Positions 1 to 24,945 of a stretch of DNA of 26,313 bases are shown here, in pieces. The position numbers and the translations under genes are program-made. The stretch lies in the IMG/VR virus record IMGVR_UViG_2687453108_000014; one strand, 5' to 3'. Below the pieces are notes generated by a model that was given only the letters and a program-made list of their open reading frames with translations, did not search any database and had not been told where the DNA came from. Within the stretch, counting starts at the first letter, position 1. Each line of letters begins with the position of its first letter. This stretch comes from a virus (Duplodnaviria > Heunggongvirae > Uroviricota > Caudoviricetes).

Positions 1-118
1 ATGTCTGCACCTGCATTGCCTGATGTCAGAACAGTATTTTGATTAATTGCCAGGGTTACAATGGCACAAATGCGGCACAGGAGGAAACGTGGTGTATTTA
101 AATATGGGGTAACTACTT

Positions 119-146
119 GATTTAAATGGTGCGATAATAGGAACCA
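119..146. repeat. Degenerate copy of the thrW 3' end plus flank; possible distal att junction of the P4-like element
   Basis: ttgatttaaatggtgc-gataatagga matches 24859-24886 (flank plus start of thrW 3' end) with a 1-bp gap, then diverges. Confidence 0.35.
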
Positions 147-285
147 ATAATCGCCACCAACACAATGATTTTAATACATAAATTAAAATAGAAGATTTAA
201 ACTACACACACCCCTATACACATTGGTGAAGGCGTTCGCTTTCCGCGCATTCTCAAGGCAGAAAAAACTTTTTTTGGGGGATAAC

Positions 286-376
286 TGTTCATACTACTCA
301 TTGTGTTTTTTTTCATTAATATTCAAAAAGATATGAAATTAACGATTGATAAGAAGTGAACACTTTACTGTTCACC
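286..376. repeat. Iteron-like octamers (TGTTCAYY / GTGAACA), including an inverted pair; candidate P4-type crr/ori
   Basis: TGTTCATA at 286-293; GTGAACAC at 356-363 and TGTTCACC at 369-376 form an inverted pair with a 6-bp spacer. I recall TGTTCACC as the P4 alpha-binding iteron. Confidence 0.35.
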
Positions 377-675
377 TTGACTGATTAATAAGTGCATAAA
401 AACCTAATTTTTGAGCACGGAAGGTATTTGTTCCTTACCCCATTTTTTCTCTTTAGTCCAGTACAACAAAAAATGCGCCCAACAGAAAACTGTTTTGAAT
501 TTAAATGCAATCGCTTTGTAGTGATTGTAACGTAAGTTGATTTGATGGGTGCGATTTTGTTTAGCGATAATGGTATGTTGTAAAAATCATTTCGTTGCAA
601 TAAAATTGCATCGCTACATTTTATAGACAATATCAATTAAATTTTAATACTCATTATTAATTTTGAGGCTAACAA

Positions 676-1632
676 GTGACTAGTTATTCAAACTTTTCCA
701 ATCAAATAAAAGAAACCATCAATAATAAATTCGATCATGAAATTCATGATTGGGACATTATAAAAAACTCAATCACAACTTTAATAAATAAAAATATCCA
801 TGGTGCAGGTAGAAATATCGTTGATTTTATAGATTTAGGTAACTGGGATTTTATTTCAAACTTTTCCTTTGATGACTCTACAAGAAGACTTGAATTAGAG
901 TGGCACCCCAATGATAAATTCCATATATATATTGAGTCCGTTGTGTTTGTCGAGTTTAATGACACTATATATGCTTTCTTAAAGGGATACTATCACAATC
1001 AGTTATCTCTAAATAGAATATATAATACAAAATGCTCTTCATGTTCATTTGAAAACTCAGGTTCTTATATGGTAGACGTTTATAGAACGGTTAAAAGAGT
1101 AAATGAGACAATCCAGACCCCAAATATAAATTGCTATACTACATGTATTTTAACAAGGCCCGCAAATGGTCATGTTACATCTACAGGCTTCTCACGAAAC
1201 CTCATGGATGCGATAAATATTTCATTAGCAGAGCACAAAATAGCCTCTTTACATAATGAAGTCATGAGTATTGAGGAATATGATCGTGATTCTTTACAAG
1301 AGAAAGGAAATACTGCCAGGAGATATTTAGAATATATTCTCATGCTTGTTAATATTCGTATAATGCATTTAAACAACGTTCAATACCAAGAGCAAATGCT
1401 AGGTAGTTTAGTTTCTGTTATTGAGGCTCTGGACTATGAACCATTAATGAAAAATGATGTTGAAATTACAAAGGACATCCTTAATGCTTGCAGCCACCAC
1501 GGGGGGGTTAGAATTGAAAAGAAAGATGTAATTTTTTCTTTGGAAGTTATTGAAAACTTAATTAAAGCCATAAAGAAAACCGACATAAATAAATTACAAC
1601 TCGATGGGATGTTTAAATCAATTCAAAAATAA
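676..1632 (+). CDS. Hypothetical protein, 318 aa, AT-rich cargo gene of unknown function
   Basis: Long uninterrupted ORF with GTG start preceded by GAGG at suitable spacing; visibly AT-rich versus the neighbouring primase gene; no motif I can recognise. Confidence 0.6.
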   Translation: MTSYSNFSNQIKETINNKFDHEIHDWDIIKNSITTLINKNIHGAGRNIVDFIDLGNWDFISNFSFDDSTRRLELEWHPNDKFHIYIESVVFVEFNDTIYAFLKGYYHNQLSLNRIYNTKCSSCSFENSGSYMVDVYRTVKRVNETIQTPNINCYTTCILTRPANGHVTSTGFSRNLMDAINISLAEHKIASLHNEVMSIEEYDRDSLQEKGNTARRYLEYILMLVNIRIMHLNNVQYQEQMLGSLVSVIEALDYEPLMKNDVEITKDILNACSHHGGVRIEKKDVIFSLEVIENLIKAIKKTDINKLQLDGMFKSIQK

Positions 1633-1736
1633 ACATCATCTAACAATGAATTAGATGCATTTTCCGCTGACGCCTTAGCATATAACTTTTAAATTTTATC
1701 GATATATATTTTGAGATAATTTCCTGTAGCGGATTT

Positions 1737-1757
1737 AAGACCGGCACAGCCGGTCTT
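1737..1757. terminator. Hairpin between convergent genes, possible bidirectional terminator
   Basis: Perfect 9-bp stem aagaccggc / gccggtctt with 3-nt loop, between the stop of the 676-1632 ORF and the stop of the primase gene; no strong U-tract. Confidence 0.35.
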
Positions 1758-1764
1758 AGGTCAG

Positions 1765-4098
1765 TTATTTCGCTGCAAACTCATCGCATTTTGGCAACCA
1801 GTCAGCATTGCTTTCCTCTCTTAGGGCCAGATTAGTCTGCATTCCTTGATTGGTCCGTCGTTTCTCATACTGCAGCCCATATTCCTTGAGCATTAACGGT
1901 AGCCCCTTGCCAAACATGGTCAGACTGAGCGTATTTTTATAGCCGTTAGCCTCCATGTAGACCAGATAGGCATGGTAGAGGTAAGTTCGAGGCTGACGTG
2001 GAACAATATTAGCGTTCCCCATAAACATGCCCGTGGTGTCAGGTAGGACCTCAAGGTAGCCGCAAAAATCAAAAGCTGAATCAGCATCACGTTTGATGGT
2101 GAGCGCTTCATCGGAGTTCTGCTGTGACTGAAGCAATGTCCTGGCACTCATTGGGTCGCTGAAACGCTGCATAAGCTGGCGAACAATCACCGCTAGCTCA
2201 CTGGCAATTTTCTCTTTGAGCTGGGTATCGCGTTCCTCCGGGGCTATCTGGTCGGGGAAATGCAGGATCACCCTTCGGCGTGAAACTCCACCACTACGAT
2301 CAGTGAAGCGCATCGGATTATTGTTCACAGCCAGGATGACCGCCGGGATGTGGGTTGAATAGGCGTTCTGATATTTGGGATCAACGGATACCGCATCGCC
2401 GCCAGTGATGGCTTTTAGTCCGGCCCCGTCACCGCTCCACTTTTCCTGGTCGGGAAGTCGAATCAGTGAAAAACCTATTAACGCAGCTCGTTCTCTTGGC
2501 GACTCAAGCATTTCAATGGTTGCCGAGGTCGCGTTATCTTCACCCGCCAGCATGGTTGCTATTTCAGCAAGAATACTCTTTCCACTTCCGCCAGGGCCAG
2601 TGACCTCCAGAAACAGCTGCCAGTCATAACGGTTAGCCAGCACCATAAACAATGCAGCCAGAATAATGTCCCGTTTTTCAGGATTAAAACCTGCGGCACG
2701 ATCCAGCCAGCGCCAGAATGCCGGGGCATGGGTTTCCAGTGACTCACCGTCAACGGGCTGCGTGTAATCCACCTCGCACAGCGTACGTAACCAGTGCTTC
2801 TTATCGTGCGGGCTGAACAATCCTGTCCGGGTATCGAGCACACCGTTGCGAAATCCGATAAGTTGCCGCGCCGGATTCTGCTGTTGCGGAACGATCAGTT
2901 TGAGGGTTTCCACGAGAGACGCAATTTTCGCGGATGAAAAAGGTGCGTCGAGGCGCTGAAACAGCGCAGCGACATCACGGGCAAAATCGGCGTAATAGAT
3001 AACTTTCCAGGCCCCCGCCTCATAGCGTGAAAGGAGCTGCCCGTTCGGGTCTACTGCCAGTGAATTTTTATAGTGATCCACTACCCTCTGCGCTTTTTCG
3101 CTGACGCTCAGCGCGGTAAATTCAGCTTCGCTCATTGTGTCGAAGGGGCTGGCAACAGCTGGTTTTATTACTTCATGAATTGCATGCCGGGTGGCTTCTT
3201 CGCCGTTTTGCGTGAATGCATCGTTCCAGTCACCAAACACAGGCGGGAGCGCCATTGTGCAATTGCAGGCCCCGGTAACAGCTGCGCCCCTTGTTTGCCC
3301 CGCACCGTTGAGATCGCGGTCAGCAGCAATAATTATCTGGTGCGTTGGGTACTCACTGCAGGCAATGCTCGCCAGGGAAAGGAAATTGACGGACGAAAAG
3401 GCCACCATGACAGCATCGCCAGTCAGATAGTTGATAGTAAGTGCGGTGGCATATCCTTCCGCTATCCAGAGCCGTTTGGCTGCTTTGGCAGTACCTTCAA
3501 CCAGGTAAAAGGCATTCTTAACCTGACCGCCTTTAAGGAAGCATTTGCCCCCATTAGCGTTGATTAACTGCAGATTTACCAGCTCTCCATCTGCATACAA
3601 TGGAACGACAAGATCTCCCGCGCGAAATGCCACACCACCGACTTTATGCATAGCGGTTAATTCCCGGCAAGGCAGTGCAGGAAACCCTTTACTCGTCAGA
3701 TAGGCATTGCCAGTGGTCTGGCGGGACTTATCAAACAAACGGGCAGCCAGCACTGCTGCAGCTTTTCTCCCGTCCTCTTTTTCAGGAGAACCAGATTCAA
3801 GCATTCCCTGAGATACTGGCAGCAGGTTTCCGATAATGCCGTTTATTCTGTCTGCCGCTTCACTAATGCCTACATCCAGTACTTTACTTACAAGCGCCAG
3901 GCCATCACCTGCCCCGCACTGGTTACAGAACCACGTTCCCCGCCCTTCCTGGTCATCAAATCGAAAGCGGTCTTTCCCGGCACAGACCGGGCAGGGCTGG
4001 TGCCGATTTTTCAGTACATTTACGCCCAGCGCAGGTAAAATTCTTGACCAGTGACCCCGAGCTGCTTTCTCAGCCTGGCTAACTTTCATTCCTGACAT
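1765..4098 (-). CDS. P4 alpha-type primase-helicase
   Basis: N-terminal zinc motif CPVCAGKDRFRFDD...CNQCG, central TOPRIM-like region, C-terminal Walker A GPGGSGKS. Start placed at the internal Met (MSGMKVSQ...), which removes the overlap with the upstream ORF. Confidence 0.88.
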   Translation of the reverse strand: MSGMKVSQAEKAARGHWSRILPALGVNVLKNRHQPCPVCAGKDRFRFDDQEGRGTWFCNQCGAGDGLALVSKVLDVGISEAADRINGIIGNLLPVSQGMLESGSPEKEDGRKAAAVLAARLFDKSRQTTGNAYLTSKGFPALPCRELTAMHKVGGVAFRAGDLVVPLYADGELVNLQLINANGGKCFLKGGQVKNAFYLVEGTAKAAKRLWIAEGYATALTINYLTGDAVMVAFSSVNFLSLASIACSEYPTHQIIIAADRDLNGAGQTRGAAVTGACNCTMALPPVFGDWNDAFTQNGEEATRHAIHEVIKPAVASPFDTMSEAEFTALSVSEKAQRVVDHYKNSLAVDPNGQLLSRYEAGAWKVIYYADFARDVAALFQRLDAPFSSAKIASLVETLKLIVPQQQNPARQLIGFRNGVLDTRTGLFSPHDKKHWLRTLCEVDYTQPVDGESLETHAPAFWRWLDRAAGFNPEKRDIILAALFMVLANRYDWQLFLEVTGPGGSGKSILAEIATMLAGEDNATSATIEMLESPRERAALIGFSLIRLPDQEKWSGDGAGLKAITGGDAVSVDPKYQNAYSTHIPAVILAVNNNPMRFTDRSGGVSRRRVILHFPDQIAPEERDTQLKEKIASELAVIVRQLMQRFSDPMSARTLLQSQQNSDEALTIKRDADSAFDFCGYLEVLPDTTGMFMGNANIVPRQPRTYLYHAYLVYMEANGYKNTLSLTMFGKGLPLMLKEYGLQYEKRRTNQGMQTNLALREESNADWLPKCDEFAAK

Positions 4099-4111
4099 TG
4101 TGCGGCCCTCC

Positions 4112-4435
4112 TTAGTGCAGCGCTGGTTTGTTGAGGTGACGGGAACAAAGTTCATCCATGACCGTCATTCCGAGCAGTGAGAGAACCGGACAGGCTTTAA
4201 GCGGCCCCGACTCCATCAGATCCGAAAGCAACGCGCAGGCAATTTCCAGCCCTCTTTGCTGCCCATGCTGGCGCAGATAGAACCCTTCCAGCTCGCGGGC
4301 TATGGCATCTTCAAGTTCAGCGAGCGTCAGGCCGGAATAACGTTCCTGATGATTGCTTAGAGCCAGCCAGGCACAGGCAACGGCACGGCGATACAGAGCG
4401 GCACGAAGTGCCAGAAGAGATTCACAGCATATCAT
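4112..4435 (-). CDS. Hypothetical protein in the P4-like early region
   Basis: ORF co-directional with and just upstream of the primase gene; no recognisable motif. Confidence 0.45.
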
Positions 4436-4656
4436 CAGGCCACCTCCGCATTCATCAGGTCGTCATGGCAGCGTTGCACCACTCCATCCAGTTGCTCTGT
4501 CATCAGATAAATGAGGGAAACCAGTTGTTCGCATTGGGCACCTGCTGGCTTTTCATAACAGTCCTGCAGGGCTGCCATGCCAGTTACATACTCACCCACA
4601 TTGCGTAAATGTTTCAGCCTTACAACATCGTCGTAGGAAATCTCAAACTGGTTCAT
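4435..4656 (-). CDS. Hypothetical small protein in the P4-like early region
   Basis: 73-aa ORF abutting the neighbouring ORFs in an operon-like arrangement. Confidence 0.4.
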
Positions 4657-5210
4657 AGCGTCACCTCCCCGGCAGGCAGCCGTGCAGAAAGGGAGAGTAC
4701 ATAATCTCGGACTAGCAAACGGCGCGCGGAACGCTCATCGCAGGAGACAGTGCGAAGCATACAGATGCGGGGGTGAGTGTCAGCACGGCGGATTGCGGCA
4801 AACACAAAGACATATTGCGGGTGTGACGGGGTGAGGATTGTAGCCATGATGGCAGCCTCCAATAAGTAGCGGTTATTGCTACCACCGGAAACGCCAATTT
4901 CACTGGTGGCAGCCCGAACGGGGTTGGCGTAACCGGCCTTATTGGAAACCGGCCAGCCCGAAGGCTGCCCCGCCCGGACTACCATTATCTCGATAGAACC
5001 ATGGTGTAAGCATAAACACCACAGCCCTGAAAATGGTTGTGCCTGAGCTACGACGTAAAAAAAGACGCAAGGGGCGTCAATTGTCGCCAATAAGTTATAC
5101 GGAACGCCAATTCCGGCTGCCGATTTTGCGACAGCGGAAAAACTATACCTGGAAATGACGACAGTAAGCAAGCCAGAATAAAGGTATTTAATGTATGCAG
5201 GTATCATCAT
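4653..5210 (-). CDS. Hypothetical protein; start overlaps the alpA stop (ATGA); true start uncertain
   Basis: ATG at 5208-5210 overlaps the AlpA stop; composition is not strongly protein-like, so a shorter internal start is possible. Confidence 0.3.
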
Positions 5211-5467
5211 GCATCACATCCCCGCCCACGGGCGCTGATGCGGTCCGCCATCCATGCGCTGACCTCAGACTGTGCCCAGGCGACATTTTTACCGCCAAGC
5301 GGGATCTGCTTCGGAAACGCATCGCGGCTGATCAGGTCGTAAACGGTCGAACGGGACAACCCGCATAAGTGCATCACCTCAGGCAGGCGTAAAAATCGCT
5401 CATGATGGTTCGATACAGGAAATAATGGCGCAGCAGGAGCTGGCGCAGACACAGAAATATTACGCAT
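5207..5467 (-). CDS. alpA: AlpA/Vis-family prophage transcriptional regulator
   Basis: Segment [53 protein letters not shown] is characteristic of AlpA-family HTH proteins of P4-like elements. Confidence 0.8.
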
Positions 5468-6020
5468 TTATCTACCCTCTTTAATTTCCACAACAGTCCG
5501 GATGAATTTATCCGGGTTCAGGTAGTTCCTTATTATGTGTATATAAACCACCTGCGCACGCATTTTTTATTTAGCGTCACATATTGATTTTATGGAATTT
5601 AAAGCCCGATTAAACCATATAAAATGACATAATAAATACCATGCCTGCGGACTATAAATACAGGAGCATTAATAGGAACTACCATTCACCCAGGGTTTAC
5701 TATCCTATGGGTCATTGCACCTGATAGTGCTAACCCCACCGCCAATACAGCAAGGCAGTACAACTTCTACACGAGGCCTTGCATTGCAGGCCCCAATTTC
5801 CGGGCATATTTTTGAATCGCATCCAACTTATAAACATTGGGCCTGCATAAAAACCTTGATATTAAATAACATCACCTTAAATCGTAAAATATATCCGAAT
5901 GAATCCATAAAGAACCGGACAGATCTAGTTTTATAAAAATCAGTATGAAATGCAACACCATGGCCAGAGGCGAAAATGTTATTCCCCGGCAAAAACATGC
6001 AGTCTATTTATGTGCCTGTT

Positions 6021-6233
6021 GAATACTCCTGAATAAGGGTGAATAGTGGTGAGGAGCAAAAAACAAATAGCTACGAGGAATAAAAAAACCACCCATTATG
6101 AAAAAATACCATAAATAATTTTATTCCCATGTGAACAGTTATGAACAGTCGATGAATACTGCCATGCCAACCCTTCACCTTATAACCTTCTGTATTACCT
6201 ATTTTTTTTACCTAAGTGAATAGTAGTGAATAG
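6021..6233. repeat. Cluster of iteron-like octamers (GGTGAATA / GTGAACAG / AGTGAATA) in the divergent control region
   Basis: At least six copies of TGAAYA-type octamers at 6038-6045, 6130-6137, 6141-6147, 6151-6158, 6215-6222 and 6225-6232; they resemble the reverse complement of the P4 iteron. Confidence 0.4.
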
Positions 6234-6400
6234 TTAAGGTAAGTCTGAAACAGCCTTAGTTAAACGAGGCCTTTTCTGGCTAGCCAAAAGAGGTCCGGGG
6301 CGGTTCAGTCTTTGTCTTGTCGCTCGCACAATGGCGTTCAATGGCAGCTTTGTATGCATCACAGCACAATTGACACCACGACAAACCACTAGGTGCTGAC

Positions 6401-7153
6401 ATGACAATCCCAGAACAGAACAATAACCCGATCGTTGAAATTTCTATCCCTGTTTCGACGCAACAGGCGCTTGAGAAAGTGAATGCCACCAAATCTGCAT
6501 GGCTTGAAGCACGTCGTCAGCAAAAAGCGGCAGCGGATAATATTGCGACAATCCGCCAGCGCCGCGCTGAAATGGAAGCCACGACGAACGCCCTGAATGA
6601 GGAGTGGCGCACGCTATTTCGTGAAAGTCAGGGCGTAGTCTCAAAGGAAATGAAAAAACTGCGCACGGAAATTGCGCTGGGACGAGAAACGCTTGAGGAT
6701 TTTGATGAGCTGCTGGCGGCTCAGGAAAGCGAAAATGCACTTTTGCCGCAGGAGGCTGCGGAATTAGCCGGAAAGTATATCCACGCGCACGACACCCTTG
6801 TGGGTATTCGCGCAAAACAAATCTGGGAAGATTTTATGCAGTCGCATGGAAAAGCACTAATCCAGACACTAAGCCTGCTCAAATCAACAATGGGCAGGGA
6901 AGCCAGCGCAGTTGTCGGTGTGGTGCATTCAGTTAATGACCCGGACACACTGCTGAAAGATTTTATTCATAAACATATCACCAGACCGGCTCTGACTAAC
7001 GATGCGATGCCCGAACAGGACCCCGTGTTTAAACTGGCGGGAGTTGCCCCGGATTATGCGGCCCGTCTGGATTTCAGTAATAAACTCTCTCCAGCAGCTA
7101 TGCATAAAATGAAGGTTCGTCAGGAACGTGCTGAGAAGGAGAAAGCAGTATGA
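6401..7153 (+). CDS. sid: Sid-like capsid size-determination protein
   Basis: 250-aa coiled-coil-rich protein first in the sid-psu-delta block; shares the FMQ-HG-AL motif with the adjacent Psu-like gene. Assignment is from position and recalled similarity. Confidence 0.55.
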   Translation: MTIPEQNNNPIVEISIPVSTQQALEKVNATKSAWLEARRQQKAAADNIATIRQRRAEMEATTNALNEEWRTLFRESQGVVSKEMKKLRTEIALGRETLEDFDELLAAQESENALLPQEAAELAGKYIHAHDTLVGIRAKQIWEDFMQSHGKALIQTLSLLKSTMGREASAVVGVVHSVNDPDTLLKDFIHKHITRPALTNDAMPEQDPVFKLAGVAPDYAARLDFSNKLSPAAMHKMKVRQERAEKEKAV

Positions 7154-7701
7154 TGGCCCGAGTCACTCCAGACCAAGCGCTTATCAGTTTTAGAAATGCC
7201 CGTATTCTGTGGGCTGGACATAGTGAGAGCCGAAAAGCCGTTGAACAACAGATAGAATCACTCCTCACTGCCATGGAAAAACCAGCAGATTATGCTCGAC
7301 AGCTCGAATTACAGCGGGAACATCTGGATGTGCTGAAATGGCAAATTAACTGTGCTGCGCGCGAATGCATTTACTCGCAGCATCAACTGATGGAGGCCTG
7401 CACAGAAGACGCTCTCAGCAATTTTATGCAGGCGAATGGAGCAGCCCTGACATCTGCACTGGCTCCGTTCCTGAAGGGGCGCGGAGGGGTTGACGTTGCG
7501 TCCCGTATATTACGCAATGCTCTGGTTCGCCAGCTGGCAATAACACCGCCTGAAATTGCCGGGGATTATCGTATGATTCTGGATGAATCCGGTGTGATGC
7601 CTGACCCCATGATGGTTCGTGATTGCCAGAGCTCTTACACCCCTGCACAACAACTGCGCTTTCAGCAACGTCTGGATTACATTAACGGCATGCAGGAGTA
7701 A
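7150..7701 (+). CDS. psu: Psu-like polarity suppression protein
   Basis: 183 aa; KWQINCAARECIY and FMQANGAALTSALAPFL resemble what I recall of P4 Psu; start overlaps the sid stop (ATGA). Confidence 0.65.
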   Translation: MMARVTPDQALISFRNARILWAGHSESRKAVEQQIESLLTAMEKPADYARQLELQREHLDVLKWQINCAARECIYSQHQLMEACTEDALSNFMQANGAALTSALAPFLKGRGGVDVASRILRNALVRQLAITPPEIAGDYRMILDESGVMPDPMMVRDCQSSYTPAQQLRFQQRLDYINGMQE

Positions 7702-7706
7702 TATTA

Positions 7707-7979
7707 ATGGCACTTAAATGTCCCGAATGCGGTACGACGGCACACGCCAGAACCTCCGCCTATGAAGCACCATCGGTTAAACGCTCATGGTATCAGTGCC
7801 AGAATCTTGAATGTTCCTACACATTTACCGCACTGGAAAGTGTGGATACGATAATCATGAAGCCCCGGCGCAATGAACAGGAATCAGAGAAAGCACAAAT
7901 GCCGGAAAAACAACAGCAAACTCTCAATCGCTATGGCTCCGCGTCAAAGCTGTCAAGCCGTCAGCAAATTCCTGTCTGA
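7707..7979 (+). CDS. ogr: Ogr/Delta-family zinc-finger late transcription activator
   Basis: CPECG...AHARTS...YQCQNLECSYTF matches the Ogr/Delta zinc-finger pattern of P2/P4-type elements. Confidence 0.85.
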   Translation: MALKCPECGTTAHARTSAYEAPSVKRSWYQCQNLECSYTFTALESVDTIIMKPRRNEQESEKAQMPEKQQQTLNRYGSASKLSSRQQIPV

Positions 7980-7998
7980 TTAGCAAAAAAAGCCCACG

Positions 7999-8027
7999 TA
8001 ATCCCGGTCCAGTACTGGGATTTTTTA
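7999..8027 (+). terminator. Rho-independent terminator after ogr/delta
   Basis: Stem AATCCCGG / CTGGGATT around a 7-nt loop, followed by TTTTTT. Confidence 0.6.
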
Positions 8028-8388
8028 CGCCTTTTCCCTGGCTGGCCTGAGAGCGCATGAGTGCATGTCTATAGCGCATGAAAACGCATGATTCTCATGC
8101 ACCATTTTTGACGCGAAAGCCCTTGTGTGGTGGCTTCTGAGACGATTTGCGGAATGCATGAAAACCAGTCTGTTAAGCGAAGCGAGCAGGCGTGGGGGGC
8201 TGCGCGCGCTAAGGGGTTAGATTATAAAATATCAAACGCCGGTGAGATCCATTATTGTGGAACCACCCGAAGGAAGTGTAGAGGCGAAAGTACCCAAAAT
8301 AATTTTGCAAATTATTTAGAAATGAACTGAGCGCTCGAAACGAAATATAATTTCGAGCACCCCAATTAGCAGTTATATTTTTAATGTA

Positions 8389-10207
8389 TTAAACAGGATA
8401 AAAACCAGAGCTTCCATTCTTATTTAAGTTATGGATTTTATTTGCATCATTAATTTTTATTTGGAACGTCGGACCTTTATTCTCAAGAATTACAATCTGG
8501 AAATTATAGTCCCTTTTGATTAATGCGTGATAAAATGAATCACTGAGACTGACGCTATTAACATCCGATAGAGAACCCCCTCTATCTTTATCAAAGTGCG
8601 TCACTAATGGACTATCAAGCACAACAAATCCAATGAATGGATTCCCTTTTCTTGATAAAAATTCCGCAAAGCAAATGGTAAATATAGCATGCATTACTGC
8701 ACGGGTACCTTTACCAAACATTCCTCGGCGTTTCCCATTGATATTAAAGTCATATGTATCTTCGTCAAATCGCACTTTGTTATCTTTAGAATTTTCAAAA
8801 TTTATATCATTCAAAAAGTCTTGCATCGCTATTTCTATATCATACAAATCAGCTACTGTTAAGGAGTCAAAGTCCTCGGCGGAGTATTTAAGTTCGTCAA
8901 CATCATCTTCTTTATCTTGTAATGAAGATAGAATGCTATGTTTTGTGTGATCCATTAAAAGATTGTCTTTATATTCATAAAGTGATTCAAGAGATGAATG
9001 TATTGTTTTATATTTTTATCTTCTAACGTCTTAAAATCACTTTTTTCTGATTGATAAATTTCATTAACATCATTTTTTCTTAACATAATTAATTCATGTT
9101 CGCGAACATTAGATCCGATTGATTCAATTAATCCTTTCAGCTGGCTTTTGATTTTCAATTTTTCTGCATTACACGACAAAAAACAATCATCATATGATAT
9201 TTCATTTTCTTTTTTTGCGGTGTATTACAGAACTCACAATAAATATCTGCAAAATTATTTAAATAGAAATTCGCCTGTGATACAACATCTATTCTTTGTA
9301 GATCTATAAAGTATTGGTCTTTAAGAAGACTAAATCTTTCAATGAGTAATGATAAGTATTTTTCCCTGTCACTGATTGAATATAATTCATCACTTAACTC
9401 TTTTAATAATTGCTTCTTATCATCAAGTGCATCAACAATACCTTTCAATATATCTTTCGATGATTCAATATCTTGCTCTACTTTCTCAAGTTCTCTTGAA
9501 ACAATGACTTGATCATATTCAGGATAAATTAATTGCGCTTTCAATTCCTCATAAATATTTGCAATTTGATTTTTTTAAAAATATCTTGCTTTTTTATTTG
9601 GTTTTTCTGCTAAGGAGTTAGTATCATCTCTCTGAGTTAAAAGGAATTTAAATTCAGACTTTCTTTTTGTCTCCTCGCTAGGAATATCAGAAAGAATTAA
9701 CGACTTCTCAGTTAACACTCTTAATTCATCAATACAAAAAAATTCAAAAACATTATTAAGATTAAATTTATGAAGAGTATTACTTAAGTTTGTTCTTACT
9801 TTAGCCTCTTTGAAATTCAACCTACCATAAAAGTATGATGAAAAACTCTTTTTAGACGAAGCACTTTTGGAAAAAACCATCAACAGATTAGCTTCACTAA
9901 CATTTTCAATACTCGAATCATATAATCTGTAATGGGCGCTATCCTGAAGAGACCTCTCAATTGTCATTACCCTACCTTGAAAATTAAATTCCAGATAGGC
10001 TAAATCATAACCTTGAGCATGATCGATATCTTTATTTTTTAGTTTTTCACTCCCTAATAAATATCGAATCAAATAATATATGTATGTTTTTCCAGAGTCA
10101 GAACCACCATATAAAATAGTCAATTTAGAACCAAATTCAATTATAGCATCTAATTTATTGAATCCGGTTACCTTTATTTTTCTGAACGTAAAAAAATTGT
10201 CATTCAT
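8389..10207 (-). pseudogene. SMC/ABC-like ATPase (component 3), split into four ORF fragments by one in-frame TAA and at least one frameshift
   Basis: N-terminal fragment has an SMC-type Walker A (FRKIKVTGFNKLDAIIEFGSKLTILYGGSDSGKT); the middle is coiled-coil-like; the last fragment has a Walker-B-like FVVLDSP. Fragments 9578-10207 and 9155-9574 are in the same frame separated by TAA at 9575-9577. Fragments 2 and 3 use TTG starts. Confidence 0.5.
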
Positions 10208-10658
10208 AATTAAATTCCATATCATATTTGCCAATTTTATTTTTTATAATTGATTGCAACTGCTCATCAGGAATATCACTATATAACTTAACCACCAAAT
10301 TTATATTATGCTCCATCTGCGCAACATATTCATTATGTAGAGAATTTGTAAATGCATATGTTTTTTCAGAAGCTTTATATACAAAACCACGATGTGTATA
10401 AATTTTTGAGGCTAGTTCATAGCCTTGCAACAAAGCCAATGATTCTAAAACAATCTCTCGTTTTAGGGCTAACTGAGCATCTCTACGGGGTATTGGAGGA
10501 TGAAGACTAATCTCTTCAGGTAAAAAATCCTTAAGATTTACTAAAATAAAATCAAAACAAATAAGCCGTTCAAGGCTTAATGAAGAAGGATAAATAGCGA
10601 CGAGCACTTTCGCCATTCGACATGCCACTTCTAAACTTGAATTATAAATTCTAACCAT
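10200..10658 (-). CDS. Small protein (component 2), about 152 aa from the internal ATG
   Basis: ATG at 10656-10658 overlaps the upstream stop (TAATG) and its own stop overlaps the ATPase start (ATGAATGA); no recognisable motif. Confidence 0.5.
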   Translation of the reverse strand: MVRIYNSSLEVACRMAKVLVAIYPSSLSLERLICFDFILVNLKDFLPEEISLHPPIPRRDAQLALKREIVLESLALLQGYELASKIYTHRGFVYKASEKTYAFTNSLHNEYVAQMEHNINLVVKLYSDIPDEQLQSIIKNKIGKYDMEFNYE

Positions 10659-11275
10659 TATCTCACCGTCCAAATTACTTCACCATCATTAACCAAATGA
10701 TGGCATATTCCTTTTTTATCATTTGCTTCACATATTTTTGATAGTACTGAATGTGCAATTGGTGTCAGAACAGCCTGCTTCAAGACTGCATTACACCTAA
10801 TAAATGCATAATTATGGTCTTCATAAAAGACGGGTTCAATTGAAGATGAAATGTAACATTTCAATGCTTTGAATACATCATCTTTAAATACTTCGCGGAC
10901 AAAAACCTCAAGCGAAGATGCAAAATAAAAATCATTTCTACTATTATTAAAGTGTCGTCTGTATGGATCATCAAGCTCTAAGAAAGAACTATAAGTTTTA
11001 TTTCCATGCTCTGAATAGGCTTGAAGCAGTGCATTAACATATACAGACTCTTTTTTTGAATTGTATGTTGGAATTTCATTTGGAGGGATTCTCACGACAT
11101 ACAGCTCGTTAAAGTACTTAAAATAAAGGTGTGTATTTGCAATATCATTTAAAATCAATGATAAGGGTAGAGAGTAAAAAATACTAAAATCAAAATCCTC
11201 AATATATTTTTTTATTTCATCATCTAATGGAATATCAATCTTTTTAGTTATTTTTTTGAAATTGCTGAATCCCAT
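10658..11275 (-). CDS. Hypothetical protein, probably the C-terminal part of the upstream nuclease-like gene
   Basis: Overlaps the upstream ORF by 28 nt in another frame exactly at an A7 run (11251-11257); its own RBS is weak; a 1-nt change in the run would fuse the two into about 340 aa. Confidence 0.45.
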   Translation of the reverse strand: MGFSNFKKITKKIDIPLDDEIKKYIEDFDFSIFYSLPLSLILNDIANTHLYFKYFNELYVVRIPPNEIPTYNSKKESVYVNALLQAYSEHGNKTYSSFLELDDPYRRHFNNSRNDFYFASSLEVFVREVFKDDVFKALKCYISSSIEPVFYEDHNYAFIRCNAVLKQAVLTPIAHSVLSKICEANDKKGICHHLVNDGEVIWTVR

Positions 11276-11664
11276 GAATCAAGGACTGCTTTTTTAAGCT
11301 CGTTTTTATTTTTCAATAAATTAGAAAATGTAGTAGATAAATCATAGGGTGCCACAAAAAAGTACTTCTGAGGGATGGGATAATCACCATTCAGAGTAAA
11401 ATAGATAAGTTTTCCAAACTCAACTACAACATCAGAGAACCCTAAACTTTTTTTGTACAGTTTGCATTGATAATTATCCCAAGAATAACCTTCTACGTTA
11501 GGATCCGATTTATATCCAACAACGTCTCTACCTTTATCTCCAGCTCCTCCCAAACGTTCGCTCCACGGGTAATCATCTGATTTACAGACAATAAGCCAAT
11601 CATGGACAAATACCTCCCATTGTTCATCATCCCATGTCAATATTTCCGAAAGTGGTTGAGACAC
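11248..11664 (-). CDS. PD-(D/E)xK (Mrr/Cap4-like) nuclease-domain protein (component 1, N-terminal part)
   Basis: ERLGGAGDKGRDVVGY ... NYQCKLYKK resembles the G-x-GD-x-G-x-D ... QxK catalytic core of Mrr-type nucleases; GTG start 7 nt after AAGGAG, directly downstream of the integrase stop. Confidence 0.5.
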   Translation of the reverse strand: MSQPLSEILTWDDEQWEVFVHDWLIVCKSDDYPWSERLGGAGDKGRDVVGYKSDPNVEGYSWDNYQCKLYKKSLGFSDVVVEFGKLIYFTLNGDYPIPQKYFFVAPYDLSTTFSNLLKNKNELKKAVLDSWDSAISKK

Positions 11665-11667
11665 AAA

Positions 11668-12849
11668 TTAACTCCTTTTTAGTCTTTCAAATATCAAATT
11701 ACTGTACCAGTCCATCATAGACTTCCTTCCACTAAAATATTGAGCATGGTTATAAGTCCCCCTAATAGAATTTTTATCTACATGAGCCAACTGGATTTCA
11801 ATCCAAGCACTCTCAAAACCTTGCTCATGCAGGATTGTAGAAAGGGTATGACGAAAACCATGTCCAGTGACTTTTCCTCCATACCCAATACGCTTAATGG
11901 CTTGATTTATACTCGCTTCGCTCATTGGCCTATTCGGATCGTTCCGCCCTGGAAAAACATAACGATAGTTCCCTGTCATGATCTTGAGTTCATTGAGTAA
12001 ATCTACCGCTTGAGATGATAAGGGCACAAGATGTGGCCTACGCATTTTCATCCTTTCAGCAGGAATTTCCCAAATAGCGTTATCCAGATCAAATTCTTGC
12101 CATAATGCCGCGCGTAATTCGATGGTTCTCACACCCGTAATCATCAGTAATTTCGTGGCTATCTGGACAAGCTTACTCCCGGAGTAACCCTCTAAGGCAC
12201 GTAGAAAATCAGGTATCTCATCAGCTTTTAGGAATGGGAAATGATTGGATTGGTGTACTTCGAGAGCGCTGGAGAGATCAGCCGCAGGATTGTACTCCGC
12301 CCTACCCGTTGCAATTGCGGGGCGGTTCACTTCGGAGCAACGCTGCCGCACTTTGCGCATTTTCTCCAACGCACCACGTTTCTCAATTTTACGCAGAACG
12401 TTCAGCAGCTCTAGCGGTTTAATCTCTCCCACAGGCCTTGTTCCGACATAAGGAAAAATGTCGTTCTTAAACGCTTCCATGATGTCTGATGCATATCCCG
12501 CCGACCATTTAGCAGATTTAAGTTGATGCCACTCTCTGGCTATCTTTTCGAAGGCGTTCTCTGACTCTGTTTGCATAGCTAGCTTTTGCTCTTTTCGAAC
12601 CTCACTAGGGTTCTTTCCTTCTGCCACAAGTTTTCGAGCTTCATCACGACGGGAACGAGCATCGGCAAGGGTGATCGTTGGGTAAACACCAAGCGAGATC
12701 ATTTTGGGTTTGCCGGCATAGCGATAGCGGAACCGCCAACTCTTGCTTCCATTAGGTTCTATAAGTAATGACAACCCTAGCCCATCTCCAAATGTATAGG
12801 CTTTAGCTTCAGGCTTAGCGCGGCGAATCTGCATATCGTTTAAAGGCAT
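11668..12849 (-). CDS. int: P4-type tyrosine integrase
   Basis: P4-type N-terminal arm-binding region (MPLNDMQIRRAKPEAKAYTFGDGLGLSL...) and catalytic HxxR (GHGFRHTL) and Tyr (RGTYNHAQY) motifs; lies next to the partial thrW repeat. Confidence 0.9.
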   Translation of the reverse strand: MPLNDMQIRRAKPEAKAYTFGDGLGLSLLIEPNGSKSWRFRYRYAGKPKMISLGVYPTITLADARSRRDEARKLVAEGKNPSEVRKEQKLAMQTESENAFEKIAREWHQLKSAKWSAGYASDIMEAFKNDIFPYVGTRPVGEIKPLELLNVLRKIEKRGALEKMRKVRQRCSEVNRPAIATGRAEYNPAADLSSALEVHQSNHFPFLKADEIPDFLRALEGYSGSKLVQIATKLLMITGVRTIELRAALWQEFDLDNAIWEIPAERMKMRRPHLVPLSSQAVDLLNELKIMTGNYRYVFPGRNDPNRPMSEASINQAIKRIGYGGKVTGHGFRHTLSTILHEQGFESAWIEIQLAHVDKNSIRGTYNHAQYFSGRKSMMDWYSNLIFERLKRS

Positions 12850-12904
12850 GTGTATAGGAATCCAGACCGAACAGGAACATATACACAATCCTATACACAT
12901 TCAG

Positions 12905-13010
12905 TACCGGATTCTACTGGATGGTTACGGACTACTATGGACTTAAAAGAATAAAAAATGTTATAAATCAGAGATTTTATGGACTAATACGGACGTTTGA
13001 GGAAGTTGAG
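12905..13010. promoter_or_regulatory. Candidate integrase arm-type binding repeats
   Basis: Repeated TACGGAC / TATGGACTA motifs between the int start and the att core. Confidence 0.3.
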
Positions 13011-19616: not shown

Positions 19617-20339
19617 TTACTCACCAACAGCCCACCAACTGTAATTCATCGATACCGTGTCGCTGGTTGATGACGTTCTGTAAGCAGAATTAAAGCCGGT
19701 TAACGTTGGGCCTTCTGCAGTCATCACGAACCCTCGCCCAGCGCCTAAAGGCGCACCGCCATCACCAGAATGAGTAAGCATGGCGCAGTCCGCTTTTTGG
19801 GGAAAGGGATGCTGAATGTAATTCTCATTGTTGCGTCGATAATGTCGGCGTAACCGCACCACGACCATATTGCAGGATTTTCCCGTTGGTAATTTCATCC
19901 ATCCATTACCACTGGCAAAGAGGCCATGTCCGGTATCTGATTTTCCCCTGTCCCACATCCCGTTTGCCGCTTCTCCCAAACCAAGGTTTTGAAGAGCCGT
20001 TTTCACCGTGCCGTCCGATTTGATATCGCCAAACGGATTCTTGCGGCTCAGGTATTCAACAGCAAACCCCGATCCCAGCAATTCAACAAAACCGGGCAGA
20101 TCACCATTATCAAGCACATCCCGTTGCGTTTTATCACTTACAAACTGGGCCAGAGCTGCAGCAATAAAGCTGGCCTGCCGAATAACCTTATTGACTTGCG
20201 CACTGGATGCTTTCCCTGCTGTAAATCCGGATATAAGCGCAGGCAACGCTTCCCATTCCTCCTGCGACATAACATTGGCATTTCGATCAGTTGCAAACGC
20301 TTTAAAGTCATTTTTCGCCATCAGAGTAATACTCCCCAT
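19617..20339 (-). CDS. Side tail fibre protein (e14 Stf-like); C-terminal third lies inside the invertible segment
   Basis: ORF just upstream of tfa containing crossover site 2 (19971-19996) in frame. Confidence 0.6.
19971..19996. repeat. Invertase crossover site 2 (hix/gix-like, 26 bp) inside stf
   Basis: TTCTCCCAAACCAAGGTTTTGAAGAG, inverted relative to site 1. Confidence 0.7.
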
Positions 20340-20632
20340 GCCCCTACATCAAAACCACTGATGAATTCGTTATCCATATCAAAACCAAAAAATTTAGAGC
20401 CTTCCGATGGAGTTTCCACCGAAGGTGTTTCAATGCCCCCCGCCCATACCCCGGCGGCTTTTACTGTTAGATACCCCTGTTTAATTGCCGCAATTAACTC
20501 ACGCGATACATCTGAAATATCAGTATCAGGAAAGACCCAGACCGATATCGTCATGTCCTGGTTATCGATGTTGGCGATCCGACGCATCTGCTCACGGTCA
20601 AAGTTAACCATCTGTGCGGCGATGTTTTTCAT
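20321..20632 (-). pseudogene. Deletion fusion: lambda P codons 1-21 joined to the 3' end of a tail/baseplate gene
   Basis: First 21 residues (MKNIAAQMVNFDREQMRRIAN) match lambda P; downstream sequence is unrelated and ends overlapping the stf start, as the last gene before a tail fibre would. Confidence 0.65.
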
Positions 20633-21528
20633 AAATCCACCCCGTAAATCCAGTCAGTGTTTGTCAGGTCGAGTTTTGGTTTGCTGGCTGTCACGCCTGC
20701 CTGTTGCTTGTTACGGTTGATTTCGAGCTGGGTCCACTTGTCGCGGAGTTTGGCCGGACTCAGCACGTTACCGGACCAGAAGTTGTCCTGGCAGGCCCAG
20801 CGGAAAAGCACACACATATCGCGGTGGTTACGTCCGTCACGTTCACGCATCAGGCGGATATCGTTAGCCCACCCAGCAAAATTCGGTTTTCTGGCTGATG
20901 GCGCGATGGTCTTCACCATGTCAAACATCCACTCTGCGGCGGTCAGGTCTTCTGCTGTTCCCCACTTGCTGCCGCTCTGAATTGCAGCATCCGGTTTAAC
21001 CACAGAAAGATCGTTTTCTGGCTGGTCAGAGGATTCGCCAGAATTCTCGGACGAATAATCTTTTCTTTTTTCTTTTGTAATAGTGTCTTTTGTGTCCCCC
21101 TGTTTTGAGGGATAGCAATCCCCCAATTTGAGGGATGTTTTATCCCTCGTTTTAGGGGATTTTCCCTCGTTTTGAGGGATACACCATTCTGAGATGTTTT
21201 TATTTGGTCCAAACATGCCGCCTTGCTGCTTGATAATATTCATTCTGACGAGTTCTAACTTGGCTTCATTGCACCGTTTGACAGGTAACTTTGTAATCTC
21301 GCTAAGTTGAGAATCGGTGATTCTGTCCATTGGTTTATTCCACCCATAGGTTTTACGCAGAATGGCAAGCAGCACTTTAAACTGTCGCTTGGTCAGATCT
21401 GCGCCCGAATAAGCCTCAAGCAGCATATTTGATAGTCTGGCGTAACCATCATCGAGATCTGCCACATTACGCTCCTGTCCGGCAAAGTTACCTCTGCCGA
21501 AGTTGAGTATTTTTGCTGTATTTGTCAT
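20629..21528 (-). CDS. O: Lambda-type replication initiator O
   Basis: 299 aa, matches what I recall of lambda O; contains the ori iterons. Confidence 0.93.
   Translation of the reverse strand: MTNTAKILNFGRGNFAGQERNVADLDDGYARLSNMLLEAYSGADLTKRQFKVLLAILRKTYGWNKPMDRITDSQLSEITKLPVKRCNEAKLELVRMNIIKQQGGMFGPNKNISEWCIPQNEGKSPKTRDKTSLKLGDCYPSKQGDTKDTITKEKRKDYSSENSGESSDQPENDLSVVKPDAAIQSGSKWGTAEDLTAAEWMFDMVKTIAPSARKPNFAGWANDIRLMRERDGRNHRDMCVLFRWACQDNFWSGNVLSPAKLRDKWTQLEINRNKQQAGVTASKPKLDLTNTDWIYGVDL
21060..21185. repeat. ori-lambda: four ~19-bp iterons plus adjacent AT-rich region inside O
   Basis: Repeated ...CCCTC(A/G)AAA(C/T)(G/A)AGGGA... units at about 21096-21183, with a T-rich tract at 21060-21095. 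Confidence 0.8.
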
Positions 21529-21560: not shown

Positions 21561-21854
21561 TCAGAACTCCATCTGGATTTGTTCAGAACGCTCGGTTGCC
21601 GCCGGGCGTTTTTTATTGGTGAGAATCGCAGCAACTTGTCGCGCCAATCGAGCCATGTCGTCGTCAACGACCCCCCATTCAAGAACAGCAAGCAGCATTG
21701 AGAACTTTGGAATCCAGTCTCTCTTCCACCTGCTGATCTGCGACTTATCAACTCCCACAGCTTCCGCTGTCTTCTCAGTTCCAAGCATTGCGATTTTGTT
21801 AAGCAACGCACTCTCGATTCGTAGAGCCTCGTTGCGTTTGTTTGCACGAACCAT
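21561..21854 (-). CDS. cII: Lambda cII transcriptional activator
   Basis: 97 aa from MVRANKRNEALRIESALLNKIAMLGTEKTAEAVGVDKSQISRWKRDWIPKF...; the ORF track's longer N-terminal extension is discarded. Confidence 0.93.
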   Translation of the reverse strand: MVRANKRNEALRIESALLNKIAMLGTEKTAEAVGVDKSQISRWKRDWIPKFSMLLAVLEWGVVDDDMARLARQVAAILTNKKRPAATERSEQIQMEF

Positions 21855-21972
21855 ATGTAAGTATTTCCTTAGATAACAATTGATTGAATGTATGCAAATA
21901 AATGCATACACCATAGGTGTGGTTTAATTGGATGCCCTTTTTCAGGGCTGGAATGTGTAAGAGCGGGGTTAT

Positions 21973-22182
<210 letters not shown>

Positions 22183-22195
22183 TTAGTACATGCAA

Positions 22196-22266
22196 CCATT
22201 ATCACCGCCAGAGGTAAAGCAGTCAACACGCGCGGTGTTAGATATTTATCCCTTGCGGTGATAGAT
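22196..22266. promoter_or_regulatory. OR1-OR2-OR3 with divergent PR and PRM promoters
   Basis: OR1 TATCACCGCCAGAGGTA (22200-22216), OR2 CAACACGCGCGGTGTTA (22224-22240), OR3 TATCCCTTGCGGTGATA (22247-22263); OR2 differs from my recalled lambda sequence by one central base. Confidence 0.85.
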
Positions 22267-22270
22267 TTAA

Positions 22271-22987
<717 letters not shown>

Positions 22988-23114
22988 TAGGAAGTAAGTT
23001 TTATGTTGACGGCACAGTCAACTTGGCATAGATTAATTAAACCAAGCCCAGCCCCGTTCGCAGACAATTGTTAATATCTGCATAACGGCTCTGGGCTATT
23101 TTTTTGGGACTCTT

Positions 23115-23573
23115 ATGAAGAAAGCAGCAATTTTAATTGATGCGGGTTTTTTCATGCAGCGTGTTCATGCTACGCATCGTAAACACTTCGCCGAGCATGA
23201 ACTGACTGCGCAATGCATAATGAAAGTAATATGGTCAATGGTTCTTTCCCATCTTAATGGAAAACGTCAATCACAAGAACGTAGGGAACCGCTTGAGCTT
23301 TATAGAATTTACTTCTATGACTGTCCACCACTCGACATTCAAACACGCCTTCCACTTCCTGAGCCTGGCAATAAGACGCCTGGTCGCAAGAATTTCAAAC
23401 TCGAAAAATCATATATTCTGAGAACGGAGCTGCATGAAGAGTTAAGAAAAACTCGAAAAACAGCCAATTGTATTTATTTTAAAATTAATAGGTGCAACTC
23501 ACTAAACAACGCAATTCTGATCTCTCGATCACCTCCCAAGCCACACAACCCTGCAAAAAATAAATCTATATAA
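23115..23573 (+). CDS. Hypothetical protein in the slot lambda uses for rexA/rexB; N-terminus NYN/PIN-like
   Basis: ORF between cI and OL, co-directional with cI; begins MKKAAILIDAGFF...; the 3' end runs into lambda-like sequence upstream of OL3, so it may be a truncated remnant. Confidence 0.4.
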   Translation: MKKAAILIDAGFFMQRVHATHRKHFAEHELTAQCIMKVIWSMVLSHLNGKRQSQERREPLELYRIYFYDCPPLDIQTRLPLPEPGNKTPGRKNFKLEKSYILRTELHEELRKTRKTANCIYFKINRCNSLNNAILISRSPPKPHNPAKNKSI

Positions 23574-23587
23574 AAAACATACAGATA

Positions 23588-23650
23588 ACCATCTGCGGTG
23601 ATAAATTATCTCTGGCGGTGTTGACACAAATACCACTAGCGGTGATACTA
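23588..23650 (+). promoter_or_regulatory. OL3-OL2-OL1 operators with PL promoter
   Basis: OL3 23588-23604, OL2 23607-23623, OL1 23631-23647 (TACCACTAGCGGTGATA); -35 TTGACA at 23621-23626 and -10 GATACT at 23644-23649. Confidence 0.85.
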
Positions 23651-23688
23651 AGCACATCAGCAGGACGCACTAACCACCATGAAGGTGA

Positions 23689-23719
23689 TGCTCTTAAAAA
23701 TTAAGCCCTGAAGAAGGGC
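23689..23719 (+). promoter_or_regulatory. nutL (boxA variant plus boxB hairpin)
   Basis: boxB GCCCTGAAGAAGGGC at 23705-23719; upstream boxA-like tgctcttaaaaatta appears to carry one substitution relative to recalled lambda. Confidence 0.7.
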
Positions 23720-23876
23720 AGCATTCAAAGCAGAAGGCTTTGGTGTGTGTGATACGAAACGAAGCATTGGCCGGAAGTGCGAATCCGGATTAGCAGCCAA
23801 TGTGCCATTGCGGGGTGTTTTCGTTCAGGACTACGACTCCCACACACAACCAAAGCTAACTAACAGGAGAATCCAG

Positions 23877-23990
23877 ATGGATGCACAAACACGCCGCCGC
23901 GAACGTCGCGCAGAGAAACAGGCTCAATGGAAAGCAGATCGGATTCTGGCTTCAACATTTCGCAGGAATGCAACTAAGAGACATTACTGA
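23877..23990 (+). pseudogene. N: Truncated antiterminator N (codons 1-20) running out of frame into integrase sequence
   Basis: [20 protein letters not shown] matches lambda N; from about 23938 the sequence is integrase-derived and the N frame ends after 17 unrelated codons. Confidence 0.85.
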
Positions 23991-24855
23991 ATCAAAAATT
24001 TATTCAGCAATGCAGAAAATGACGAACCGGCGTCATGAGGAAAACTGGAAACTCAGGGCAGAAGCATGCAGAAAAAAAGGGAAACCTGTTCCAGAATACA
24101 CGCCAAAACCAGCGTCCGTTGCAACGAAGGCTACGCATCTTTCATTTATAAAGGCCCTGCTAAGAGCCGCAGAGCGTGAATGGAAAATGCTCGATAAGGC
24201 ACCAATTATTAAAGTGCCTCAACCAAAGAATAAACGGATCCGCTGGCTGGAGCCCCATGAAGCACAAAGGCTGATTGATGAATGTCCGGAGCCATTAAAG
24301 TCTGTTGTTGAATTTGCACTGGCAACAGGCTTAAGACGCTCGAACATCATCAACCTTGAATGGCAACAAATAGATATGCAGCGCCGGGTGGCATGGATAA
24401 ACCCGGAAGAGAGTAAATCAAACCGCGCAATTGGCGTTGCGCTGAATGATACTGCATGTCGCGTATTGAAAAAACAAATCGGTAATCATCACCGTTGGGT
24501 ATTTGTGTACAAGGAAAGCTGTACCAAACCAGACGGAACGAAAGCGCCAACAGTAAGGAAGATGCGGTATGACGCAAACACAGCCTGGAAAGCGGCGCTG
24601 AGACGGGCTGGTATTGATGATTTCAGATTTCACGACTTGAGACACACCTGGGCAAGTTGGCTGGTTCAAGCCGGAGTCCCGTTGTCAGTGTTACAGGAAA
24701 TGGGAGGCTGGGAGTCTATCGAAATGGTTCGTCGATATGCTCACCTTGCACCTAATCACCTTACCGAACACGCACGGCAAATAGACTCGATCCTGAACCC
24801 ATCGGTCCCAAATTTGTCCCAGTCAAAAAATAAGGAAGGTACTAATGATGTGTAA
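23939..24855 (+). pseudogene. int: P22-type tyrosine integrase lacking about 80 N-terminal residues
   Basis: ...[39 protein letters not shown]... through [39 protein letters not shown]; homology begins abruptly at the N junction with no native start or arm-binding domain; the gene ends 14 bp from thrW. Confidence 0.8.
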
Positions 24856-24869
24856 CTTATTGATTTAAA

Positions 24870-24945
24870 TGGTGCCGATAATAGGAGTCGAACCTACGAC
24901 CTTCGCATTACGAATGCGCTGCTCTACCAACTGAGCTATATCGGC
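24870..24945 (-). tRNA. thrW: tRNA-Thr (anticodon CGU), thrW
   Basis: Reverse complement is GCCGATATAGCTCAGTTGGTAGAGCAGCGCATTCGTAATGCGAAGGTCGTAGGTTCGACTCCTATTATCGGCACCA, a full cloverleaf with CCA. Confidence 0.95.

Follow-up and report, generated by a model that had tools for sequence, protein, structure and literature searches.

The window (the whole stretch of 26,313 nucleotides that was analysed) carries, between a lambda-type cI repressor gene and the OL operators, a non-lambda open reading frame (ORF) encoding 152 amino acids. Both genes are on the + strand and are separated by 127 bp, and the OL3-OL2-OL1/PL block (~23588-23649) starts 14 bp past the 3′ end of the ORF. The features of this interval and of its right-hand side are as follows:

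22274..22987, + strand: lambda-type cI repressor, 237 aa, the upstream neighbour (ORF list and lambda comparison)
22995..23114, + strand: non-lambda 5′ leader of the NYN cassette; the same ~125 bp lie ahead of the gene in ev099, 2B8/E212 and Stx2a phages
23115..23573, + strand: ORF of 152 aa with an ATG start (ORF list)
23115..23465, + strand: genuine remnant, codons 1-117 of a 285-codon NYN-domain gene, 100% identical to ev099 L001:3126-3476
23464..23466, no strand: deletion junction, 574-bp loss (L001:3477-4050) with a 2-bp CC overlap
23466..23573, + strand: 35 out-of-context codons and a stop, lambda-like non-coding DNA upstream of OL3
23588..23649, + strand: OL3-OL2-OL1 operators and PL promoter (sequence reading against the lambda operator annotation)
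23878..23937, + strand: first 20 codons of lambda N (ORF translation; the ev099/lambda match ends at 23937)
23935..24855, + strand: 5′-truncated prophage integrase (EDL933 annotation "site-specific integrase, missing N-terminus")
24870-24945, - strand: tRNA-Thr (thrW), followed by proA

The cI protein has 234 of its 237 residues in common with lambda cI, and its gene is annotated in EDL933 as LexA family protein WP_001274756.1. Window positions 21814-22994 are 97.8% identical to lambda 38400-37219. The match breaks at 22994, 7 bp past the cI stop codon, and comes back at 23464 (lambda 35770), from where 23464-23937 is 92% identical to lambda 35770-35300. The DNA in between, 22995-23463, is non-lambda in this comparison, and the corresponding interval of lambda is annotated as rexA and rexB. 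Lambda 35770 itself falls in non-coding DNA of the rexB-OL3 interval (35652-35824). Over its final 108 nt, the ORF runs through lambda-like non-coding DNA, and the 35-codon tail read from them, NCIYFKINRCNSLNNAILISRSPPKPHNPAKNKSI, has its source in DNA that is non-coding in both lambda and ev099. The PL hexamers (TTGACA-17-GATACT) are found at 23621-23649.

A sequence-only reading of this DNA had placed a non-lambda ORF, co-directional with cI, in the rexA/rexB slot and had suspected that its C-terminal half was truncated where it runs into lambda-like sequence. Both points agree with the comparison above, the junction lying directly after codon 117. No likeness to RexA or RexB was found for the ORF with Pfam, PHROG or NCBIfam, nor any lambda DNA match over 22995-23463, and its link to RexAB is one of position. 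In RefSeq, the ORF is labelled as a hypothetical or PIN domain-containing protein.

With regard to expression, the cI/PRM/OR region is intact and lambda-like, and a scan of the + strand found no terminator-like site between cI and the ORF. It is plausible that the remnant is transcribed together with cI from PRM. A promoter-like sequence in the cassette leader (TTGACG-17-TAGATT, 23006-23034, 9/12 matches) carries no weight, the scan having returned no more such sites than shuffled sequences did.

A cryptic prophage at thrW

The window region matches E. coli O157:H7 chromosomes at 99.8-100%, and its counterpart in EDL933 is a cryptic prophage at ~301 kb, beside tRNA-Thr (thrW), proA and proB. 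What the window holds is thus cryptic prophage Sp1/CP-933H of E. coli O157:H7, located at thrW; Sp1 is the name that CP-933H has in strain Sakai. Sp1 has been described as a highly degraded lambdoid prophage in Sakai (PMC2669165).

Several other lesions are visible along the prophage. A second, larger deletion has cut N after codon 20 and joined it to the truncated integrase, removing the PL operon from N to int. The lambda-type O gene (20629-21528, - strand) is an intact ORF of 299 codons in the window and is annotated as frameshifted (923 bp) in EDL933, TW14359, DEC4E and strain 472; because O is intact here, the source strain differs from these four at that gene. The replication gene P is truncated to an ORF of 103 codons (20321-20632, - strand). 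In EDL933 it is annotated as partial, abutting tail-fibre genes and the pinE invertase, and this site is another large internal deletion or a chimeric junction.

Positions 1-13000 of the window hold a P4-like satellite prophage, with the following genes:

1765-4155, - strand: primase-helicase
4653-5210, - strand: Ash
6401-7701, + strand: two Psu-like genes
11668-12900, - strand: integrase

Its psu-int interval contains an ABC-three-component (ABC-3C) conflict system, with MC2 at 10200-10673 and CTD6 at 10658-11275. The ATPase of this system is apparently distributed over three ORFs (8389-8955, 9155-9544 and 9575-10234), and because it appears to be split, the system may be degraded.

The intact parent gene and the part that remains

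In a megablast search of phage genomes, ev099 spanned the full query in two pieces, its copy measuring 1287 bp against 711 bp. From 22890 to 23465, the window is 100% identical to ev099 L001:2901-3476; the counterpart of 23464-23937 is L001:4051-4525. In ev099, 2B8 and E212, cI is followed by an 858-bp gene whose annotated product is an NYN domain-containing protein, and residues 1-117 of the ORF are 100% identical to the full-length 285-aa proteins. The 574 bp missing from the window comprise codons 118-285 and 67 bp of downstream DNA, and translation then runs 35 codons into the lambda-like DNA. We are highly confident that the ORF is a pseudogene, namely the front 41% (codons 1-117 of 285) of a single-gene NYN cassette whose deletion abuts an IS629 site.

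The comparison of the cI-OL interval among phages, which the sequence-only reading had proposed, showed the intact gene in the same slot after cI in ev099, 2B8, E212, Stx2a-converting phages (n=48) and E. coli CH4793. The gene is intact in 54 phage records. CH4793 has cI, cro and cII protein accessions identical to those of EDL933. The identical cassette, including its leader, follows three different repressors: the lambda-type cI (ev099, CH4793 and the window), the cI of 2B8/E212, and the 933W-type cI accompanied by a 113-aa ORF (Stx2a-converting phages). As a mobile cassette of one gene, the 285-aa NYN gene takes the place of rexAB in numerous lambdoid and Stx2a phages. The more distant homologues, solitary in every case, were seen in the interval between the Q antiterminator and holin genes (Edwardsiella prophage), at a prophage end in Pseudomonas syringae, and beside glmS in Proteus.

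Family assignment of the parent is provided by several profiles. The parent matches phrog_5783, a phage family annotated as of unknown function, over positions 1-245 (E = 1.5e-119), and the ORF matches only positions 1-108 of the 246 in this profile (E = 4e-42). Since this E-value is accompanied by 100% identity to full-length proteins, the coding signal of the ORF is far above chance, and by its sequence the ORF is a partial member of phrog_5783 by descent. The NYN/PIN-like character that had been read from the N-terminus of the ORF was borne out by the parent, which carries the identical residues 1-117 and scores 36.8 bits against Pfam NYN (PF01936; cut-off 24.2 bits), only via residues 158-205. 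A database search returned 7035 homologues of the parent across Gammaproteobacteria, mostly 250-300 aa long; a few of 167-185 aa are E. coli fragments that are 92-100% identical. The AlphaFold2 model of the parent (41 sequences) has a mean pLDDT of 87.5. No PDB chain matched the family profile even at E <= 10, and a fold comparison was used instead; the parent is an NYN-domain protein with a PIN-like fold. It is a putatively metal-dependent ribonuclease.

Most of this fold is absent from the window copy. Two aspartates, D9 and D69, do not vary across the family alignment, and conservation is 90% or higher at D164, D170, D189 and D191 (GDSDF motif), D205 and D209. Only the two invariant ones are left in the ORF, the other conserved aspartates all lying past residue 117. 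It has been predicted that four conserved acidic residues bind the catalytic metal in NYN domains (Anantharaman and Aravind 2006, summarised in PMC5499597); the ORF does not have four, the equivalence of the residues to the canonical tetrad being judged from motif position. Nor does it have a PIN-like alpha/beta/alpha fold with a parallel core sheet: strands 3-9, 61-69 and part of 116-120 are left, and the later core strands and helices are gone. Structure prediction of the 152-aa product, another check suggested beforehand, gave pLDDT values below 50 for residues 122-152, and the 35-residue tail is predicted to be disordered. The stretch of the parent that PF01936 recognises (158-205) is absent from the window copy, and the ORF matched no Pfam family even at E <= 10 and nothing in NCBIfam or PADLOC, PHROGs alone recognising it. 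Because D164, D170, the GDSDF motif and most of the catalytic core are lost, nuclease activity of the remnant is very unlikely.

Some peculiarities were noticed in other copies of the gene. RefSeq splits an uninterrupted 285-codon NYN ORF, open in frame throughout, in CH4793 (L008:2150-3007) and DEC4E (L005:3650-4525) into a pseudogene ("PIN domain-containing protein, missing C-terminus") and a shorter "NYN domain-containing protein". The split is probably artefactual, the truncated O157 protein being abundant and having served as evidence. In the Stx2a phage Stx2_EH0505, the 113-aa ORF (L018:2137-2478) occupies the interval between the 933W-type cI and the NYN cassette, and an IS element is located just past N. 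The Stx1 converting phage AU5Stx1 (KU977419.1 / NC_049920.1) retains two pieces of the NYN gene at ~12369-12572, together ~25% of it, suggestive of a deletion derivative of this cassette that arose independently.

Alleles of the gene at the IS629 site

Sister genomes carry the locus in several states. Allele coordinates are those of ev099 locus L001, in which the IS629 target TAA is 4048-4050, 64 bp past the NYN stop codon:

Strain 472 type: whole gene with a 1-nt frameshift after ~codon 152, IS629 at the TAA; product frameshifted; 6 genomes
TW14359 type: ...CAGCC (3476), A, TAA, IS629, TAA, CCAATTG (4051...); 570 bp lost, IS kept; 127 aa; 92 genomes
Window type: ...3476 joined to 4051; 152 aa; about 6 genomes
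EDL933 type: ...3473 joined to 4051; 129 aa; most of the 108 genomes with an IS-free junction
DEC4E type: ...3895 joined to ~4052, a separate ~156-bp deletion that reaches the same site; NYN core kept; 291 aa; 1 seen

The right edge of the deletion in the window lies directly after the TAA that forms the IS629 target duplication in sister genomes. In these relatives, IS629 is present at the same nucleotide, with the duplication: TW14359 reads ...CAGCCATAA, then IS629, then TAACCAATTG (92 genomes), and strain 472 reads ...ACACATAA followed by IS629 beside the whole gene (6 genomes). The class of IS-free junctions to which the window belongs occurs in 108 of 5426 E. coli genomes. Such junctions lie directly at the IS end and show microhomology or small flank losses that vary in size, all right-hand breakpoints falling within a few nt of that end. 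The three short IS-free alleles, with products of 152, 129 and 128 aa, equal the TW14359 allele minus IS629, the right-hand TAA, and 6, 7 or 10 nt of left flank. The IS-free scars lack ancestral bases still found in the alleles that carry IS629 and are therefore derived from these.

The most likely history is an insertion of IS629 followed by imprecise excision. In the order of events that we infer, IS629 would have inserted at the TAA 64 bp past the NYN stop codon, the adjacent 570 bp would then have been lost, and imprecise excision of IS629 would finally have left the IS-free scars. At the site concerned, "IS.29" of Sp1, strains are known to be polymorphic (PMC3271280). It was also reported that IS629 excision in O157 is promoted by an enhancer and entails flanking deletions and microhomology joining, and that O157:H7 carries the IS-excision enhancer gene iee (PMC9943667), which is located outside the 26-kb window; this enhancer may have promoted the excisions seen here. 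The 570-bp loss itself may have been IS-driven as well, slippage between AAAAACAGCCTTAA and AAAAACACATAA being the alternative. A classic IS-adjacent deletion, considered as the origin of the 570-bp loss, was set aside as less parsimonious, since the left flank would have needed an additional T-to-A change.

The alternative just mentioned can be extended to the whole deletion, which would then have arisen by slippage or illegitimate recombination unrelated to IS629, with the element later landing by chance in some lineages. The lost segment does have imperfect direct repeats on either side (AAAAACAGCCTTAA, L001:3467-3480, and AAAAACACATAA, 4039-4050), and a crossover between them gives the exact left flank of TW14359. 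However, in six genomes IS629 sits at the same TAA beside the full-length frameshifted gene, so at least one lineage had acquired IS629 before the large deletion. ATAA and TAA, ancestral bases missing from the IS-free scars, are still present in the TW14359 allele, and the scars can therefore not be its ancestors; four independent IS-free junctions at 0-4 nt from the IS end are likewise hard to explain without the element. We consider an origin unrelated to IS629 improbable. A reading of the ORF as a complete, independent short gene that merely resembles an NYN N-terminus could appeal to its start, its stop, its 152 open codons and its RefSeq label, but the DNA is 100% identical to the intact gene through codon 117 and then jumps 574 bp, the ORF tail is lambda non-coding DNA, and in a family of mostly 250-300 aa the few shorter members are E. 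coli fragments. The identity to codon 117 and the deletion coordinates refute this reading, whose probability we put at next to nothing.

A third possibility is that the 152-aa product, or its 117-aa NYN piece, is still functional as a dominant-negative partner of intact NYN proteins encoded by co-resident prophages, an RNA-binding module or a regulator expressed with cI. The frame is open, the leader and start codon are those native to the cassette, and the cI/PRM region ahead of the ORF is intact, with no terminator-like site between; in Sakai, the early genes left in Sp1 show a response to mitomycin C (PMC2669165), and Stx2a phages able to share the host carry intact copies. Against this, at most three core strands and two conserved acidic residues are left, and the tail past residue 117 is predicted to be disordered and is not conserved among O157 alleles, whose products have 152, 129, 127 and 128 aa. 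The same locus is also found frameshifted or IS-flanked, a pattern of neutral decay. Retained function of this kind appears very improbable, and the pseudogene remains our reading. The N-terminal 117 codons are without a disabling mutation in any allele, and O157:H7 genomes are too alike for this to indicate selection. Because both the inactivating lesions and the C-terminal tails are varied, the series argues for neutral decay of the gene in the prophage, whatever the order of events.

The ORF, which recent RefSeq already labels as a PIN domain-containing protein, is in these terms an ordinary pseudogene in a well-studied cryptic prophage. The allele series is a clean natural case of IS629 insertion followed by repeated imprecise excision and could possibly serve as a lineage marker.

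Possible role of the intact gene and known systems

For the intact 285-aa NYN gene, a moderate defence lead, phage exclusion is a reasonable candidate role, suggested by its position. The gene appears to behave as an accessory gene expressed in the lysogen, and because the distribution of the cassette fits such a gene, an RNase acting against superinfecting phages would be its likeliest role, a guess that we hold at well under even chances. The fuller proposal is equally tentative: a single-protein, lysogen-expressed NYN ribonuclease could protect the lysogen as a functional replacement of RexAB, on a cassette mobile between immunity regions and accessory slots. If this were true, the O157:H7 copy would be a fossil of an NYN-based defence lost via IS629 activity. 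In a remoter version of this proposal, the N-terminal fragment would still modulate intact NYN proteins encoded by co-resident Stx phages. The literature yielded nothing specific on a lambdoid immunity-region NYN gene or an NYN prophage defence, and no experimental data on the NYN subfamily of the parent. In PADLOC-DB 2.0, the parent has weak partial matches of ~45 residues each to HEC-09 (E = 2e-4) and NYN (E = 1.4e-3).

HEC-09 (PADLOC PDLC04163), a MARF1-like NYN candidate defence gene, is like the parent a single NYN-domain protein found in a mobile/defence context. The weak profile match is confined to the catalytic motif (46 residues around GDSDF), whereas the N-terminal domains differ, and the window ORF has no HEC-09 match at all. 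HEC-09 gave no protection against the phages assayed (bioRxiv 10.1101/2024.01.29.577857). The closest known family is NYN (PF01936; the LabA-like/MARF1-like branch of the PIN-like superfamily) together with phrog_5783. Compared with reference NYN domains of 150 aa, the parent has an extra large insertion (~residues 70-160) and a basic C-terminal tail, and the window copy lacks everything past residue 117, including the stretch recognised by Pfam and most of the catalytic residues.

Lambda RexA/RexB share the cI-OL slot and the orientation of cI with the NYN gene, and because of this orientation the gene is probably expressed in the lysogen from the repressor promoters. On the other hand, there is no sequence relationship between them, and two genes stand against one: RexA/RexB are a sensor and a membrane protein, whereas the NYN product is a predicted soluble nuclease, and the copy here is broken. 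As for the lesion, it resembles the IS629 polymorphisms of O157:H7, in which the element is present or absent at one Sp1 site across strains, with a TAA target duplication. It differs from a classic IS-adjacent deletion in that the left copy of the target duplication has survived the main 570-bp loss. Enhancer-dependent IS629 excision (PMC9943667) leaves small variable losses and overlaps of 1-3 nt, as at the IS-free alleles described here.
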